DNA of 64,000 nt. Source: a virus. Lineage: Duplodnaviria > Caudoviricetes. A program made the position numbers and the translations under genes. Below the pieces are notes generated by a model. That model saw only the letters and a list, made by a program, of their open reading frames with translations. It searched no databases and was not told where the DNA came from. Shown here one piece after another: positions 2,146 to 24,037 of this stretch (the stretch's first letter is position 1; every line of letters starts with the position of its first letter). The stretch lies in the IMG/VR virus record IMGVR_UViG_3300027847_001698; one strand, written 5' to 3'.

Positions 2146-3182
2146 TTTTCCTTCTCTATTTTTAATACAGTTTCACATATATATTCAATATCATCATCAG
2201 TAAGAGTCAAGGATGATGGCAAATATACAATACTTTTATAAACTTTTTCTGTAACTGGGAATTCTTTATGTGAATAGAAATAATTATTATGATATATCGG
2301 AACGTAATATTGAGTTGCCGATATTCCTGATTCTTTTAATTTAGATATCAATGTTAAAGGGTCATCAGATCTAATTATAATTCCCCAGGATGAATCATAA
2401 CCATAATCAATTATATCTAAATATTGTTTATATTTATTCCATATTCTGTTTCGAATACTTAGTAATTCATCTAACTTCTCTAATTGATCTAGGCCGTATG
2501 CTGCAAGAATATCATTAAACTTAAGATTTAAACCTACATGTTCATGTATCCTAGTTTTTCTCCAGTTGCCACCTTGATCTCTTAATTGAAGACTTCTCTC
2601 GTAGATGTTTTTGTCGTTGGTAAATAATACTCCACCTTGACCAGTTGTAACTAGCTTAGGAACTGAGAATGAGAATGTGCCAAATAATCCTTTCTGACCA
2701 CAATCTCTAATACCTATTCCCTGACAAGAATCTTCAATCATTAAAACTTCGCTATCATCACATGCATCACTTATTAAATCTCTATCTTCACCACAATACC
2801 CATTATGGTTTACAAAGATAATACCTGAACATGCAGCCATGCGCTCTATGACTAAATCAGGATTCATGCATAGTGTATCTTCTTTTATATCTATCAATTC
2901 AATATCCAGATTTAAAAATTTAGCTACATTTGCTGCTGCCAAGAAAGAATATGCAGGAAACAAAATAGTTTCCCCTTTTATGAATCCACAGGCATTCATA
3001 CCTAACAATAATGCTGATGTTCCTGAATTAGTAGAAACGCAATACTTACTATTAGTTATCTCACATATTTTCTCTTCAAACTTTCTAACAGTTTCTCCTG
3101 GTCCTACGAAACCAGTTTCCATCTGACTACAAACTCTTTTAACACTAGATGACATTACTAATGGTTCTACTTGATGTATCAT
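2142..3182 (-). CDS. DegT/DnrJ/EryC1/StrS PLP-dependent sugar aminotransferase (perosamine synthase-like)
   Basis: NSGTSAL, IEDSCQ, FSFSVPKLVTTGQGG (PLP lysine), terminal LPSS; adjacent to gmd. Confidence 0.92.
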   Translation of the reverse strand: MIHQVEPLVMSSSVKRVCSQMETGFVGPGETVRKFEEKICEITNSKYCVSTNSGTSALLLGMNACGFIKGETILFPAYSFLAAANVAKFLNLDIELIDIKEDTLCMNPDLVIERMAACSGIIFVNHNGYCGEDRDLISDACDDSEVLMIEDSCQGIGIRDCGQKGLFGTFSFSVPKLVTTGQGGVLFTNDKNIYERSLQLRDQGGNWRKTRIHEHVGLNLKFNDILAAYGLDQLEKLDELLSIRNRIWNKYKQYLDIIDYGYDSSWGIIIRSDDPLTLISKLKESGISATQYYVPIYHNNYFYSHKEFPVTEKVYKSIVYLPSSLTLTDDDIEYICETVLKIEKEK

Positions 3183-10237: not shown

Positions 10238-10254
10238 TATAGATATATATAGAA
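10238..10254 (-). promoter_or_regulatory. Recurring motif class A (minus strand TTCTATATATATCTATA)
   Basis: 17-mer TATAGATATATATAGAA identical to 60689..60705; intergenic, upstream of a minus-strand gene. Confidence 0.55.
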
Positions 10255-17115: not shown

Positions 17116-19572
17116 ATGCATAGTCACAACGACGTTTTCACTCTAATTAAATTCTATGATGACAATAAAAACATTATAGGTTCAAGTCAATCCGATCTAC
17201 AGGACATAATTCTTACAACTGAAACAAAAGATATAGAAGAAACGACCCTGCAAATTGCAATTGATACTAAGCTGCAAACTTTAGAATATTTCAAAGTAGC
17301 AATAGATGTTCCTGCTTTTAATTCAACTGATTATAATAAAATAAGAAGATTACTTATAGACTGGTATTCCGCAAATAAAACCTTCTCGACTCTTCAAAAA
17401 AATACATCTGACCCTAATACATTAGAAGCACCATTATTAGAAGAAGCAATAAAGAGTATGGGTTTTAATTACTCTCATCTAATAACACAAAAAGATTCTA
17501 GAGCTCAGTTTTTATTAAACTTAACAGAGCTATATAAAACAAAAGGCTCACCTCAAACTATGTTAGATGCATTAAAATTCTTCGGATTCTTTAATGTAAA
17601 GGTGTATGAATGGTGGTTAGTAAGAGATCATACTGATGATAAATTCACATTCGAAGGTCGGAAAGTAAATACGACTGAGACTGAATTTGAAAGTGTATTT
17701 CCTGAAACACGACTTTTAGATTATGAAGACTTTGAATTATTAGCTGATCCTCATTGGTTTTATAATAAAGCAAAAATATTAGAATTAGATAATGATCCTG
17801 ATAGAGGACTGTTAGGGTTACCTTCAGGTACTCCATATTTCAGTCTAGCTTCTATTGCTGACATCGGAACTATCAATGAATCATATCTAATCATTAGTAG
17901 GTTAGTTAAGGATCAATACGATAATCATATTGCAGGAACTCCTCCACCTAAAGATATTTTAATTGATGCATTCAGATATAAAGTGTCATTACTTTCGTTA
18001 TTTTTATCTATTCTTTATATTCATTGGAAATACAATGATTTCTTAAAATATGATAAACTTAGAGATTATGTTATTACAGAGTTTTTTGTTGATCCCGAAA
18101 CTGATCTATTAAATCCTTTTACATTTGAACAACCAAATTCATATGAAAAACTTCTCTTCTGGACTATTGCAAGAGTTAATGCCATTGGTGATCCTGATCC
18201 ATTTGATATAACGGCATCTAACAAAGCAATAAATCTCCCTAAAGTTAAGACTATACCTGATCTTCCTGTAACTGCGGAATTGAATACACTGAATACCGTG
18301 TTAATTGGTGCTAGTGGTACTCCAGAAATATACAAATACAATGGAACATCTTGGGACCTTAGTGAAATTCCATTCATTGCCAAACAGCCACAATCAGAAA
18401 CATCATTTAAATTATATCCGGCATGTCATGAAGTTTATGATTCTGAAGTTGATGTCTCAAGTGATTTAAATGATTCGTTTTTAAATTTTGATGATTCAGT
18501 AATCAATTATGATGAAAAGGTATTATATCCTCTGTTAAATAGATCTCCAAATCTACCCGATTTTGCTAAGTATTTATATGCAACAGATGATGATATTCCT
18601 AACTACAATCTACCATTTACACAAGTCGTAGATTTAGAAGAAGAGATTACAGAAACAATTGCAGCATACAAAACAACAATTGAAAGACCTACTGATTATG
18701 ATGACGCTAAAGCAAAATTAGATACGTTGTTATCTACCTATCATAGAAATCAATCATTAAACTTCTTACAGAATAAAATAAACCCTGAAGCATTACTGAC
18801 AGCTTTGAATCCTGAATTTAAAGCAGATATTGATGCACGAATTGGTACTGACTTATTTTCATCTGTCGATATAGAAGAGATACTGTTCATTGAATTAGAT
18901 GCGTTTTCTGCTGGATTAATTGGCAAAACTCCTATTGATCTAAAACAATTATTATTAGGTATTCCTAATATTGATACTAAGTTCATTCCTGTTGTTGATT
19001 TCTGGAAGCCTAAGCGTGCTAGATTTTTAGCATTTGAGTTGATATATCAGATATCTAATGCATTAACTGATTCTATTAATTTAAAGGATACACTTAGCCA
19101 AACAATATCTGAAACTTATCATGACACGATTAGAGGAGTACATAGAGAGAACTATGATGTATACCCGTATAGCCATGATCAGAACCATGTAAGAGACGAG
19201 GTAACTGTATCAATGACATTGTTCAATGATGACCCAATTCCATCTATACAGATAGCAACTGGACCACATAGGCTATACCCATGTAAAGCTCTTACAGGGG
19301 ATGACCTATCAGCTAAAAATGATTTAGTTACATTAGCTGATGACGAAGGAACAACATATACAATAATAGAAGGTGATAGAATAGTGTCATCATTTGATCA
19401 TAAGATATATGTAGCACAAGCAACCGGTACTACTTGGGTTGTAGCATACAATGGAACCTTAACCACAGATGACATTTTTAGAGTAGATACTGATTTAACT
19501 AAGACACCTGGATCTGCTGAAGTATCAGCATTGTACTTTTATAACGGATCTAGCTTAGACTTGATAATTTAG
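17116..19572 (+). CDS. Baseplate wedge protein (gp7/P2 gpI-like)
   Basis: LYKTKGSPQT matches the Y..KGT motif of gpI/gp7-type wedge proteins; tail cluster context. Confidence 0.55.
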   Translation: MHSHNDVFTLIKFYDDNKNIIGSSQSDLQDIILTTETKDIEETTLQIAIDTKLQTLEYFKVAIDVPAFNSTDYNKIRRLLIDWYSANKTFSTLQKNTSDPNTLEAPLLEEAIKSMGFNYSHLITQKDSRAQFLLNLTELYKTKGSPQTMLDALKFFGFFNVKVYEWWLVRDHTDDKFTFEGRKVNTTETEFESVFPETRLLDYEDFELLADPHWFYNKAKILELDNDPDRGLLGLPSGTPYFSLASIADIGTINESYLIISRLVKDQYDNHIAGTPPPKDILIDAFRYKVSLLSLFLSILYIHWKYNDFLKYDKLRDYVITEFFVDPETDLLNPFTFEQPNSYEKLLFWTIARVNAIGDPDPFDITASNKAINLPKVKTIPDLPVTAELNTLNTVLIGASGTPEIYKYNGTSWDLSEIPFIAKQPQSETSFKLYPACHEVYDSEVDVSSDLNDSFLNFDDSVINYDEKVLYPLLNRSPNLPDFAKYLYATDDDIPNYNLPFTQVVDLEEEITETIAAYKTTIERPTDYDDAKAKLDTLLSTYHRNQSLNFLQNKINPEALLTALNPEFKADIDARIGTDLFSSVDIEEILFIELDAFSAGLIGKTPIDLKQLLLGIPNIDTKFIPVVDFWKPKRARFLAFELIYQISNALTDSINLKDTLSQTISETYHDTIRGVHRENYDVYPYSHDQNHVRDEVTVSMTLFNDDPIPSIQIATGPHRLYPCKALTGDDLSAKNDLVTLADDEGTTYTIIEGDRIVSSFDHKIYVAQATGTTWVVAYNGTLTTDDIFRVDTDLTKTPGSAEVSALYFYNGSSLDLII

Positions 19573-19584
19573 AAAACGACAACT

Positions 19585-19592
19585 AGAACAAA
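19585..19592 (+). promoter_or_regulatory. Motif class B (AGAACAAA)
   Basis: In the 50-nt gap before ATG 19623. Confidence 0.5.
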
Positions 19593-19622
19593 TTTACTAT
19601 ATCACTAGTAGGAAATTAGAGA

Positions 19623-20303
19623 ATGGTCAATATAATAAACATTAAAGAAAATCTTCACAAACATGTAAAGGACGAAGTAACCTCTACGGTTAGAGGACAA
19701 GTAGAAATATACGAAAAGTTCCCCGATGGTAATTTAAAGTTACACGACAAAAGTAATTTAGTAGTATACCAAGGACGTAATTGGTTAATGCAAAGGGCAT
19801 TAAATGAAATCACTATTCCCGAATCTGTGTCAAATATAAAGAATGCATTTATATCTTGGTTTGGTTGTGGATCAGGTGGAGCATCGTCAAACTTAATGGT
19901 CCCATTAGCTCCATCATTGAGTGATGCAGATTTAACACAACAGTCAACTATAAATAACAAAGTCTCAACTGATTGTATTGATGATGGAAAATATCATCCA
20001 TTTGATAGTGTGGAATTTGTTATTGATTCTGATAACAATAATGAATTACTTAAAGCTTCTATAACTGTTACATTAGGAGCAGATGACGGTAATGGTCCAG
20101 CAGGCGGAACAACTGTTTCAGATTTCTATGACCTCAATGAAGCTGGCTTATATGTAAGTGACAGTAAACTTCAAGCGGACTTCACAGGTGGAAGTGCAGC
20201 CGCACATTTAGCAACTATTAGAATGTTTGCTAGAGTGACATTCAGCACATTAAGAAAGTTTCCAGAACGTCAGATTGTTTTCGTCTGGAATGTATTCTTT
20301 TAA
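19623..20303 (+). CDS. Tail-collar/fibre-attachment baseplate protein
   Basis: NLVVYQGR...FGCGSG...LNEAGLY...MFARVTF..LRK...VFVWNVFF pattern seen in fibre-anchoring baseplate proteins. Confidence 0.6.
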   Translation: MVNIINIKENLHKHVKDEVTSTVRGQVEIYEKFPDGNLKLHDKSNLVVYQGRNWLMQRALNEITIPESVSNIKNAFISWFGCGSGGASSNLMVPLAPSLSDADLTQQSTINNKVSTDCIDDGKYHPFDSVEFVIDSDNNNELLKASITVTLGADDGNGPAGGTTVSDFYDLNEAGLYVSDSKLQADFTGGSAAAHLATIRMFARVTFSTLRKFPERQIVFVWNVFF

Positions 20304-20323
20304 AAAAAGAGAGAAATAAAGAA

Positions 20324-20518
20324 ATGACTAAATATTCATATGTATTACGAGAACTATCTGGATCAAGTATCAACAAGAAATCCAATAAGACTGCCAAAAA
20401 GGAAGTCCCAGAAGCTTTTAAGAAGGAATGGAAGAACAAAGACAAAGATGGTGATGGCAAGGAGAATGAACCCAAACCTGACTTCGTGAAAGAGGTTGAA
20501 AAGAATAAGAAGAAATAA
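20324..20518 (+). CDS. Small highly charged protein, candidate internal head protein
   Basis: N-terminus MTKYSYVLRE; K/E/D-rich 64 aa. Confidence 0.6.
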   Translation: MTKYSYVLRELSGSSINKKSNKTAKKEVPEAFKKEWKNKDKDGDGKENEPKPDFVKEVEKNKKK

Positions 20519-20562
20519 TCAAAGATAATAAAATGTCTATATATTCATATGTATTACGAGAA
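20332..20562 (+). repeat. 22-bp exact direct repeat encoding YSYVLRE at the 5' ends of two adjacent ORFs
   Basis: ATATTCATATGTATTACGAGAA at 20332..20353 and 20541..20562. Confidence 0.9.
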
Positions 20563-20882
20563 TTATTTAACAAGAAAAGAAAAGATTGGAATCGTAAGAT
20601 ATCACCAGAAGAAAAATAGCTCAGGATATATATGATGTATCAATTAGTGGTCGAACAGATGTTTACGATTTAGCAGAGTCAAAATTTAAAGATTTAGAAA
20701 AAAATCCAAAAACTGTACCCATAGCTGCAAAATGGATGGCTGATCATTGTTTTAAGAAATATAAACAACTGATCAACAAGTTATCAAAATCTCAAAAATT
20801 AAAAGTTCATACCAAACTTAAAGATGGATTTGAAGAGCAACTTTATGAAAGTGGAAAAATGGATTGGATAAAAAAGGGGTAA
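20533..20882 (+). other. Frameshift-interrupted ORF (28 aa plus a -1 frame continuation, about 116 aa if joined)
   Basis: ATG 20533 frame stops at TAG 20617-19 after GAA GAA AAA; the -1 frame is open from 20598 to TAA 20882 with no early ATG. Confidence 0.55.
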
Positions 20883-20897
20883 CCCCCTCTTTTATCC
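20866..20897. terminator. Hairpin between convergent genes (probable terminator)
   Basis: GGATAAAA..GGGG-TAA-CCCC..TTTTATCC inverted repeat. Confidence 0.6.
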
Positions 20898-21119
20898 CGG
20901 AATACGGAGTGTTACACATGTAACATCGTGTTTTTCCGCATGACGATCATTCATCGCCACATCGACTTGATTCTGAAGAAAATCAATCCCCCAGTCCATT
21001 ACGTCTTTGTGACTCAAAAACGCGTCCACTGATTCAATAGTGAACTTTGTTTTCAATGTGGATTCCAATTGACTCACTGCTTCTGCAATACTCGTAGCAA
21101 CATCAATGACATCTGGCAT
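20892..21119 (-). CDS. Small hypothetical protein inserted in antisense within the tail cluster
   Basis: 75 aa, GAGGG RBS, upstream class A-like motif 21177..21188, downstream hairpin. Confidence 0.6.
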   Translation of the reverse strand: MPDVIDVATSIAEAVSQLESTLKTKFTIESVDAFLSHKDVMDWGIDFLQNQVDVAMNDRHAEKHDVTCVTLRIPG

Positions 21120-21199
21120 TTTTAATTCCCTCTGTTAGTTGTTAAAGTTTGAATAGTTTCTTTGAATCACAAGTTAATATGTATAGACAAACTATAGCC

Positions 21200-21401
21200 A
21201 AAAGAAACATGCAACCAACTGAAGGGTTAGTTCAATTGGCCACATATCCAAACGACTGACTCGTCTTGTACTAATTGTGAGTATAACGTTTATACTCACA
21301 ATTCAATGTATCTGAATCACATTGGACTGTCCTCCTATTTCTGATTCCTATACCGTTGTTATAGCAATATGGAACGAGTTTCGTTCCTGATGCGTGCATC
21401 A
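21200..21401 (-). ncRNA. Candidate structured non-coding RNA
   Basis: Five to seven consecutive hairpins (21388-21401, 21371-21387, 14-bp perfect stem 21273-21303, 21215-21239 then U-rich tail) downstream of an A-like motif at 21402..21413. Confidence 0.4.
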
Positions 21402-21435
21402 ATATATATAAATGAATTATCCTATACCATTCTCC

Positions 21436-21443
21436 AGAACAAA
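21436..21443 (+). promoter_or_regulatory. Motif class B (AGAACAAA)
   Basis: Upstream of the tail sheath gene. Confidence 0.5.
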
Positions 21444-21494
21444 AATAAAAGTACAATTTAAGTATAATAGATTTTAAACTAAGGATTAGTTATT

Positions 21495-23171
21495 ATGGCA
21501 AACAATGTAAGCCCAGGTGTGTTCACTAAAATAATAGATTTATCTTCCTTTCTTGTAGAAACTCCAGGAACTCATGCATTCCTGCCATTTCTATCGAGAA
21601 CAGGTCCAGATAACAAAGCAGTTTTTGTTGCAAGTCTTCAACAGTTTGTAGATCTATATGGAAGACCAAATATCAATGACTTTGGGAAGTCATTCGGGCA
21701 AGGCCCATATGTGGCGTATAACCACATTTCTGTTGCTCCTGGATTTTGGGCAATGCGCGTTCTACCTACTGATGCAACGTATTCTAATTTATTTGTAAAC
21801 TATAATACAGATTCAACAGGGGCAATATCAGTAACTCACGAAACTACCCTTAATACACATGGGGAAATAGATACTGAAGTAGCACAGACAACTGGGACTA
21901 TTACTCCATTAGTAGCTTTCTACCCAATTGGTAGAGGAGATGCTTATGATGATTTTGCCATTACAATTACTAAACATGCAAATACACAATTAACTGGAAT
22001 CTACATTCTTGATATTTGGAAAACTCAAGCTGATGGAGATGATGTAATTATAGAAACATATGAGATTTCATTTGAATCAACTGCTATAGATGATTCTGGT
22101 GATTCCATATTCATTGTGGATGTTGTAAATAGATACTCCAAATGGATTAGAGTTAAAGCCAATGAAACATCTATTAATGAATGGCAAAAATCATCTATCG
22201 AAATTGTAGTTGGTGATTCAGTAACACCTGTTCACTTATTCAACGGTTCAGAAGGCAATATCATTGCGGTTGATTCCGATACCGGTAAGAGAACAATGGG
22301 GTCAACCGAAATTACAAATGCAACTTCACTTCTAATTGATGCATATACAGGATTGATTGAAAATCCCGAAAGTGGACTATTGGATGAAACTGTATTAGAC
22401 CTAGATGATACATACATACCAATCGTATATGATGCTGGTTATCCAACATCAGTCAAGAATGCTGCTGTTACATTAACAAGTAGCTTAAGATTAGATGGTG
22501 TAGCTATCCTTGATAATGGTGATAATGTATCAGTAGATGCAGCCCTTTCAGCTAGAGATGCTAGTCATACATACAATACTGCTTACGCATCAATATTTGA
22601 ATGTTACAGTAAAATATTTGATAACCATACTGGTAAAGAATTATGGGTAAGTCCTGTTTATCACATGGCTTCAATGATTCCTCAGAATGATAGATTGTTT
22701 GGTATTTGGTATCCAAATGCTGGATTCAATAGAGGAACCGTTGATAACATTATGGAATTGAGATTCAATCCCAGGATAGCTGATAGAGACAGATTATATC
22801 TCAAACAAGTTAATCCAATTGTTAAATTCTCAATCGGTTATGCAGTATTCTCTAATTTAACTACACAAAGAAAACCTTCTGCTCTTCAAGACTTAAGTGT
22901 ACACAGAACAATTCTGTATATTCAAAGGAACTTGGAACAATTTCTCAAGTTCCATATCTTTGAATTAAATACACCTGAAGAACATTCAAGAATGGCTGCG
23001 GCAATAACACCGTTCTTATCATCAATCAAATCTGCAAGAGGATTGGTTGATTACAGTGTTGAGGTCGGAGCAAACGAATATGAAATTAAAACTAAACAAA
23101 TGCACGTTAATGTAATATTACAGCCAACGAAAGCAATTGAAAGAATTAACTTAAATCTATTCATAAAATAA
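21495..23171 (+). CDS. Tail sheath protein (T4 gp18-like)
   Basis: N-terminal SPGVFTKIIDLS; C-terminal LYLKQVNPI, RRT-like VHRTILYI, LQPTKAIERINL. Confidence 0.95.
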   Translation: MANNVSPGVFTKIIDLSSFLVETPGTHAFLPFLSRTGPDNKAVFVASLQQFVDLYGRPNINDFGKSFGQGPYVAYNHISVAPGFWAMRVLPTDATYSNLFVNYNTDSTGAISVTHETTLNTHGEIDTEVAQTTGTITPLVAFYPIGRGDAYDDFAITITKHANTQLTGIYILDIWKTQADGDDVIIETYEISFESTAIDDSGDSIFIVDVVNRYSKWIRVKANETSINEWQKSSIEIVVGDSVTPVHLFNGSEGNIIAVDSDTGKRTMGSTEITNATSLLIDAYTGLIENPESGLLDETVLDLDDTYIPIVYDAGYPTSVKNAAVTLTSSLRLDGVAILDNGDNVSVDAALSARDASHTYNTAYASIFECYSKIFDNHTGKELWVSPVYHMASMIPQNDRLFGIWYPNAGFNRGTVDNIMELRFNPRIADRDRLYLKQVNPIVKFSIGYAVFSNLTTQRKPSALQDLSVHRTILYIQRNLEQFLKFHIFELNTPEEHSRMAAAITPFLSSIKSARGLVDYSVEVGANEYEIKTKQMHVNVILQPTKAIERINLNLFIK

Positions 23172-23215
23172 AACAATAAGATGGAACAAATTAATAAAAT
23201 TCGCGGAGTAATAGG

Positions 23216-24037
23216 ATGCATAATAGTTTCGTAAAAACCCAAGAGAACCGCCATGATAGATATTTTGGCGGGACTAGTAAGGGGGTCGCTGATCCATATA
23301 TCAGTGGCTATCACTTCATTCATTTCAAACATCTTCCGCCAAACCTTTCAGCCCACCTAGCTGTTAATGACCCGGCAGATCTCGGTTTTCAAGAAGGTCC
23401 TCCTGGAAACGATGAAATAGCTAGATTATTAGCTGCATCATGTTTGTCTGTTACTCCAGTCGGGGGAACACTAAACAGAGCTGAATTCACTGGTCTTGGC
23501 GGAACGAAATGGTCCGTTCCTACAAATATTGATTATGGGAATACTCTTTCAATGAGATTCCTGGAATATAGTAGATTACCTATCCTTCATGTATTCAACA
23601 ACTGGTTTAGAATGATCAGAGAATACAGAAATGGTACCAGTTTGTTAACTGGAAGTGCTAAAAGCCAGACATCTATAGAATATACTAAATCGGCATATTC
23701 TGGAACACTATTATACTGGACAACAAAACCAGATGGTGTAACAGTAGAATATGCTGCATGTTATACAGGTGTTTACCCAACAAAAGATCCCCAAGAACTG
23801 TATGCTGGCGACATAGCCTCATCAGATAAGCTAGAAGTTGATATGGAGTTCAGCTTCGATATGCCTTTCATGGAGAGTTGGGTAAGAAAAGAATGTCAGT
23901 TCATGGCAAATCTCTACCACGGGGAAGGTATCAAGGCACATGGCGGATATAAGGTAGGTACTTCAACAGCTAATAATACTGAAGAAGGTAGTCATACCGA
24001 TTCCGGTGGAATTGGCACTGCAACATCACCTGCATAA
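23216..24037 (+). CDS. Tail tube protein (gp19-like)
   Basis: Directly follows the sheath gene; YTGVYPT...LEVDMEFSFD tube-type C-terminal strands; followed by a strong terminator. Confidence 0.75.
   Translation: MHNSFVKTQENRHDRYFGGTSKGVADPYISGYHFIHFKHLPPNLSAHLAVNDPADLGFQEGPPGNDEIARLLAASCLSVTPVGGTLNRAEFTGLGGTKWSVPTNIDYGNTLSMRFLEYSRLPILHVFNNWFRMIREYRNGTSLLTGSAKSQTSIEYTKSAYSGTLLYWTTKPDGVTVEYAACYTGVYPTKDPQELYAGDIASSDKLEVDMEFSFDMPFMESWVRKECQFMANLYHGEGIKAHGGYKVGTSTANNTEEGSHTDSGGIGTATSPA

Follow-up and report, generated by a model that had tools for sequence, protein, structure and literature searches.

Phage 201phi2-1 encodes eleven small RNAs (sRNAs), each delimited by a transcription start and a terminator no more than 250 nt behind it, and the sRNAs of both 201phi2-1 and phiKZ were detected by ONT-cappable-seq (PMC11512511). 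[quoted passage not shown] The jumbo phage PA5oct, in which the host RNA polymerase is used, possesses the orphan RNAs ncRNA001-004, of 236-619 nt, which were defined by RNA-seq coverage and have no known promoters (PMC7318152). In phage AR9, the mapped early promoter is AAATATATATTAT-N6-G(+1), a single deviation from this early consensus can abolish activity, and early promoters diverge from late promoters ahead of virion genes (PMC5312081).

Here, we describe a computational analysis of a hairpin-rich stretch of DNA beside the tail sheath gene of an uncultured marine jumbo phage. The window, the whole 64,000-nt stretch that was analysed, occupies positions 25369-89368 in an IMG/VR virus record of 193.5 kb. 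Our preferred reading, which is a tentative one, is that positions 21393-21200 of the minus strand could specify a short, early transcript that is terminated, untranslated and akin to the orphan sRNAs of phages. The unit resembles the 201phi2-1 and phiKZ sRNAs in possessing a promoter-like site, an intrinsic terminator within ~200 nt of it, a position beside a tail gene, several hairpins and no open reading frame (ORF), and its predicted length of ~190 nt would lie inside the 250 nt that bound the jumbo-phage sRNAs. It differs from them in being divergent from the sheath gene and probably outside the sheath mRNA, in being confined to one phage species, and in being known from sequence alone. 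Like the PA5oct RNAs, it is ORF-free and species-restricted, and has neither sequence relatives nor a known function, whereas its outline here comes from sequence grammar and folding only. With early units of the AR9/phiKZ type it shares an extended AT-rich promoter with a conserved start at a fixed distance (AAATATATATTAT-N6-G in AR9, TCTATATATAT-N7-TGAR in this phage), the divergence of early promoters from the late promoters of virion genes, and a late motif that contains AACA (PMC5312081). In the present case, however, promoter class and timing are predicted, the promoter of the unit departs from the local consensus, and the payload is non-coding.

Genomic setting and promoter motifs

The hairpins are held in a 375-nt gap between a minus-strand ORF of 75 amino acids (20892-21119; P0001), which encodes an acidic helical protein, and the plus-strand tail sheath gene (21495-23171), whose 558-aa product matches four PHROG sheath families and Pfam Phage_sheath_1C. 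The minus strand reads as two tandem units. The first comprises a partial promoter (P1), ~190 nt of hairpins and a terminator-like hairpin (H7); the second comprises a promoter (P2), the 75-aa gene as its payload and a bidirectional terminator hairpin of 14 bp (20866-20897), found by both a terminator scan and an inverted-repeat search, which closes the 75-aa cassette as well as the convergent plus-strand genes. Five relatives with sheath identities of 45-62% (L001, L002, L013-L015) are without the whole insert; in these phages a 221-251-aa gene, matching the window gene at 19623-20303 in position and length, precedes the sheath gene directly, with gaps of ~35-90 nt. Because this gene abuts the sheath gene in all five relatives, 20304-21430 (~1.1 kb), which was found only in this phage species, is best regarded as a lineage-specific accessory insert, and the site between the virion protein gene and the sheath gene is, judged by this comparison, a hot spot for accessory cassettes.

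Besides the hairpin unit and the antisense 75-aa cassette, the insert contains two small plus-strand genes whose products start with MxxYSYVLRE. The second of the MxxYSYVLRE genes (20535-20882) appears frameshifted or truncated in the window. Locus L009 carries a 2-nt deletion inside this gene (20626-20627), and the variant locus L005 has in its place a longer, distinct gene (125+ aa) that shares the N-terminal motif.

The record holds nine exact minus-strand copies of the class A core TCTATATATAT, and in eight of the nine TGAR follows exactly 7 nt after the core, giving the extended class A consensus TCTATATATAT-N7-TGAR; the sole exact plus-strand copy is without TGAR. Class A sites of the window lie on the minus strand at 10253, 15798, 21187 and 60704. 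P1, with the core TTTATATATAT (21402-21412, minus strand), is a partial class A (early-type) site that matches at 10 of 11 positions, the mismatch to TCTATATATAT being C to T at position 2. Its core is followed by TGATGCA-CGCA instead of N7-TGAR, and only the G and the final purine of CGCA agree with TGAR. The earlier note had seen a class A-like motif immediately 5' of the hairpins; its TA-rich core stands, but with CGCA in the place of TGAR the PWM score of P1 is 6.25 bits, as against 24-30 bits for the exact sites and 16.8 bits for P2, and 141 genome positions score as high. By an AR9-like rule, transcription from P1 would be predicted to start at the G at 21393.

A spacing of 23 nt separates P1 from TTTGTTCT, which is complementary to the class B motif AGAACAAA (21436-21443, plus strand); this class B motif is a candidate late promoter of the sheath gene and is divergent from P1. 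Six other class A sites show the same back-to-back layout with a late motif, at spacings of 27-42 nt. Examples of this recurrent module, in which late and early-type promoters diverge from a short spacer, are found at 10253, 15798 and 78159 in window numbering. Of the features that mark a cassette, the P1 unit has the core, the back-to-back late motif and closure by H7, and lacks TGAR and a coding payload.

P2 (TCTATACATAT-N7-TGAT; 21166-21187, minus strand) is a good class A promoter for the 75-aa gene, ranking 13th genome-wide by PWM score. It is located directly behind H7 and 48 nt before the ATG of the 75-aa gene, and in L005 its core is the exact consensus. In L008-L010 the TA repeat within P2 is contracted by 2 nt (21180-21181), and 13 nt between ATTCAAA repeats (21153-21165) are deleted from the 5'UTR of the 75-aa gene.

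RNA contigs of four ocean metatranscriptomes, from four studies, were placed on 19500-23500; contigs of this kind cannot show transcript starts or ends. They leave 20984-21455 uncovered in shallow libraries (depth 2-5 on the flanking late genes), and since the neighbouring 75-aa gene, a real gene, is also barely covered, the gap over the hairpin stretch is uninformative. In two independent studies the first positions covered by sheath RNA contigs are 21456 and 21461, which places them 13-18 nt beyond AGAACAAA and leaves 34-39 nt to the sheath ATG; this points, weakly, to where the sheath transcript begins and to AGAACAAA as its promoter. The candidate, which reaches no further than 21402, overlaps no plus-strand gene, and the late motif and both contig starts lie outside it, so that the hairpin stretch would fall outside the sheath mRNA. 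The unit had been described as antisense to the tail operon, and of this description the orientation stands, probably without any overlap. The geometry thus hints, weakly, that the unit does not regulate the sheath gene as a cis-antisense RNA; an upstream sheath start or read-through from 20897 may still create an overlap.

Folding and strain variation of the hairpin stretch

In the comparison with dinucleotide shuffles that the earlier note had proposed, the minus-strand RNA of 21195-21420 reaches a folding energy of -70.6 kcal/mol (z -6.0), which 0 of 200 shuffles equalled. It ranks fourth among 1759 windows in a GC-adjusted sliding 220-nt scan of the whole 193.5-kb record, and the subsegment 21305-21393, which excludes the hairpin H5 as well as H7, reaches z -4.7 alone. 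The hairpin structure is real and more than chance. The plus strand of 21195-21420 folds at -56.8 kcal/mol (z -3.9), and the minus-versus-plus difference of -13.8 kcal/mol, at rank 224 of 1759, is ordinary for this genome; the overall energy asymmetry between the strands was for this reason dropped as proof of the minus strand. The clear minus-strand signal consists of H6, H7 and the U tract only, the subsegment 21196-21272 having z -3.2 on the minus strand and -0.7 on the plus strand. The earlier assignment to a minus-strand RNA accordingly draws its strength from the terminator part and not from the strand energies as a whole.

The minus strand contains all of the stems named beforehand, most of which are also recovered by folding and repeat tools. 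H1 (21388-21401) is the 5-bp hairpin UGAUG-CACG-CAUCA, with a 4-nt loop, and not the 6-bp stem first reported; it straddles the predicted P1 start, and a start at G 21393 would leave it out of the RNA, from which it may be absent. H2 (21371-21387), a perfect 7-bp hairpin (GGAACGA/UCGUUCC, loop AAC), is identical across all strains, L005 included. Although the reported stems CUAUA/UAUAG and AAUGU/ACAUU are possible, their place in the minimum-energy fold is taken by a composite hairpin, H3' (21308-21353), of 4 + 6 + 3 bp (GUAU/AUAC, GAAUCA/UGAUUC and GGA/UCC). H5 (21273-21303) is a perfect 14-bp hairpin with the loop ACG, recovered by inverted-repeat search; no other perfect hairpin in the 193.5-kb record is as long, and H5 is strain-specific. 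H6 (21250-21266) is the 6-bp hairpin AGACGA-GUCAG-UCGUUU, the base of whose stem is one U shorter in L009.

Within H3', the sequence AGGAGG (21336-21331) is followed, after 8 nt, by AUG-UGA (21322-21317). We considered this start-stop arrangement as a signal and rejected it: 7 of the 46 genomic AGGAGG sites precede ORFs, the sites being mostly intragenic, and two other start-stop look-alikes in the genome lie inside ORFs, so that the SD-AUG-UGA sequence of H3' is not meaningful.

H7 (21200-21249, minus strand), picked up by the terminator scan, has a 19-bp stem (21249-21205) with seven G-U pairs, topped by CCAAUUGAA/UUCAGUUGG, and a CUAACCC loop; the stem is followed by UUUCUUUU. With a stable stem-loop and a U-rich tract directly 3' on the transcribed strand, H7 is a good candidate intrinsic (Rho-independent) terminator, and it resembles such terminators further in that its pairing is retained in a variant allele. 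It departs from the usual terminators in its unusually long stem, rich in G-U and A-U pairs with only four G-C pairs, and contrasts with the short terminators, rich in GC, that close other cassettes of this phage, e.g. that at 20866-20897. When the RNA was cut short ahead of the 3' arm of H7 and folded, no antiterminator helix competing with H7 appeared. If transcribed, this long, G-U-rich hairpin would offer a test case for termination by a phage polymerase. The stretch is, as had been proposed, non-coding, hairpin-dense, best read on the minus strand and closed by a terminator-like end.

Within the species, ~24 contigs are nearly identical. The L005 variant, with a sheath gene ~99% identical to that of the window, is 100% identical from 21305 to 21500, replaces H5 with 12 nt that form a 4-bp mini-hairpin, and has a different sequence beyond the terminator at 20866-20897; its version of the stretch folds with z -4.0. 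H5 is thus dispensable, as far as this alignment tells, and sits exactly at the boundary of the segment swapped between strains; it may be a young inverted duplication of adjacent sequence. Because H5 is absent from L005 and the strains diverge exactly there, the element is, on this comparison, not conserved as one piece. In H7, L005 carries three substitutions, all of them pair-preserving (A-U to G-U, U-G to C-G and G-U to G-C), and the U tract that follows is 3 nt longer. The covariation in relatives to which the earlier note had looked amounts to these three one-sided changes, all in the terminator; no two-sided (compensatory) pair changes were found in the strain alignment, where diversity is low and seven further contigs contribute few SNPs. 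Conservation of pairing is therefore indicated weakly, and for the terminator only.

Readings of the unit

A search of the entire window with Rfam covariance models, a check to which the earlier note had pointed, returned nothing at gathering thresholds, and a more permissive Rfam scan of 20800-21800 (E up to 10) returned four chance matches to miRNA models, at 12.9-18.5 bits against gathering thresholds of 46-86. The riboswitch, T-box, 6S, tmRNA, ribozyme and known phage RNA families of Rfam were rejected, none giving a covariance-model match, and ARAGORN found neither a tRNA nor a tmRNA. A blastn search of 50,697 phage records yielded no match to the hairpin stretch; exact-pattern scans, from which near-identical records may have been withheld, gave zero occurrences for H5 in viral contigs, for H2-H3 and H7 in metagenome contigs, and for H2 in genome contigs; and a covariance model (R1) built from the window, L005 and L009 found only its training sequences in the phage's own record, a relative's record and nine loci. 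The hairpins recur nowhere else in the phage genome and have no paralogue there, and their complementarity to the rest of the phage, at most 13 nt, is at chance level. The RNA polymerase-binding or decoy role suggested earlier gained nothing in its support, no Rfam match to 6S or any other family having been obtained. An antitoxin RNA of a type III toxin-antitoxin system (ToxI-like) was likewise rejected: the stretch has no tandem repeats, and the 75-aa acidic helical protein encoded downstream matches no family and has its own promoter.

In the sRNA reading that we tentatively favour, the stretch would be a stand-alone member of the phage's counter-oriented early cassettes. A weakened P1, back-to-back with the late promoter of the sheath gene, would start a ~190-nt RNA; this RNA would fold into H2, H3', the strain-specific H5, and H6, and would be released at H7 acting as a constitutive intrinsic terminator, and P2, an intact class A promoter behind H7, would drive the 75-aa gene independently. 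The scheme supposes that P1 fires, that transcription is early and is carried out by a virion-type phage RNA polymerase, as the analogy with AR9 and phiKZ would suggest, and that the product either acts as an RNA in trans or is merely a terminated by-product insulating P2. The layout of TA motif, hairpins and terminator matches a short stand-alone RNA unit, and a terminated minus-strand unit is plausible. With a promoter match that is partial, the unit is a candidate RNA only, and its transcription from P1, any regulatory role and any link to the tail operon are putative. Counting against the sRNA are the weakness of P1, the loss of H5 from L005, the absence of the insert from the relatives and the lack of any homologue. 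If transcribed, the unit would add an orphan ncRNA to an uncultured marine jumbo phage and would provide a compact test of the early-promoter rule, P1 having the core without TGAR. As a species-specific candidate it is not a major finding, and the by-products of the analysis, namely the AR9-like early consensus, the back-to-back promoter module and the weak hint of where the sheath transcript begins, will probably prove of greater use than the RNA.

A bolder version of the sRNA reading, which we hold to be doubtful, is an early, phage polymerase-made orphan sRNA of a marine jumbo phage whose modules turn over between strains, the RNA and the acidic protein together forming one accessory, possibly anti-host, module. 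One hairpin would then have been gained by inverted duplication, and another part would have been swapped together with the fast-evolving 75-aa gene.

Nearly as likely as the sRNA, though on its own somewhat unlikely, is a relic of an early cassette that has decayed and lost its payload, in which only H7 would be under selection, as an insulator shielding P2 and the 75-aa gene against stray transcription of the minus strand; the other hairpins would be young or neutral palindromes, e.g. from the inverted duplication making H5, and there would be no functional RNA. P1 is indeed degenerate, the sole comparative sign of selection lies in H7, and H5 is perfect, strain-specific and placed at the strain divergence boundary, in a hot spot of cassette turnover where the insert is missing from five relatives and the left side is replaced in L005. 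Decay does not, however, predict that 21305-21393, stripped of H5 and H7, should still depart from its shuffles as far as it does, and a terminator is useful only where minus-strand transcription arrives, for which the P1 region is the only upstream source in the gap. The AGGAGG-N8-AUG-UGA sequence could be taken as a dead translation start, but AGGAGG is unreliable as a gene-start mark in this genome.

We regard it as improbable that the P1 transcript is a long 5' leader of the 75-aa mRNA, with H7 as a premature terminator that sets read-through; in such an arrangement read-through would add to P2-driven expression, and a 5'UTR-derived sRNA would be released as a by-product. A leader or attenuator of this type would agree with the same-strand order of promoter, structured leader, terminator and gene, and with the precedent of 201phi2-1, in which 8 of the 11 sRNAs arise by premature termination in 5'UTRs (PMC11512511). 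Set against this, P2 is a good independent promoter between the terminator and the gene, and exact consensus in L005, so that the hairpin unit is not needed as a leader for the 75-aa gene; a riboswitch-like leader is disfavoured by the independence of P2 and by the absence of an alternative antiterminator helix that could compete for the H7 5' arm, and Rfam gave no riboswitch, T-box or leader match.

Well below these readings in probability is an element acting at the level of DNA, whose palindromes would be operators of the divergent promoter pair, a recombination site or a replication origin. The palindromes H1, H2 and H5 show perfect Watson-Crick pairing and read alike from either strand, the start predicted for P1 falls within H1, and H5 lies at a recombination boundary; yet the three palindromes have no common half-site and recur nowhere else in the genome, and good pairing of H7 and H6 is confined to the minus-strand RNA. 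The hairpin-rich origin that the earlier note had offered as an alternative finds no foothold, the stretch having no iterons, tandem repeats or repeated short motifs beyond chance and no AT-rich unwinding tract, with a local GC content of 37% that lies above the mean of this low-GC record (~33%). The least probable reading by far is a missed small protein gene, in the 42-61-aa minus-strand frame 21456/21399-21271 or another micro-ORF: the frame is open in L005, where the indel of 21 nt is a multiple of three, but no ORF with a ribosome-binding site occurs in the hairpin stretch or in L005, the in-frame ATG (21399-21397) precedes the point at which the transcript is predicted to start, L005 has an altogether different C-terminus, and the frame crosses perfect hairpins.

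The 75-aa gene and its distant homologue

The L005 allele of the 75-aa gene (P0122; L005:3153-3383) is 75% identical to P0001. With dS 0.61, dN 0.18 and dN/dS 0.3 between the two alleles, the gene is under purifying selection overall. The first ~30 codons differ heavily between strains that are otherwise ~99% identical, and the DNA of codons ~33-49 (20973-21023) is identical in both strains; by this comparison the divergence is patchy, gene-conversion-like or diversifying. The protein has no match in Pfam, PHROGs or Foldseek/PDB. Its predicted model is helical (pLDDT 70.7), and the Atlas model is of low confidence and gave no usable match. Among the minus-strand 220-nt segments of the record, 20833-21052, which takes in the bidirectional terminator and the 3'-terminal half of the 75-aa gene, ranks third for structure (-76.1 kcal/mol, GC-adjusted z -3.9).

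A single distant homologue of the 75-aa protein was found, P0126 (45 aa), encoded by an unrelated GC-rich phage (L016) in which there is no similar RNA. In L016 an element of ~70 nt is repeated (2215-2285 and 2935-3003) ahead of two consecutive small genes and may be a phage promoter or a leader repeat. A large terminase that contains an intein is also encoded on this contig.
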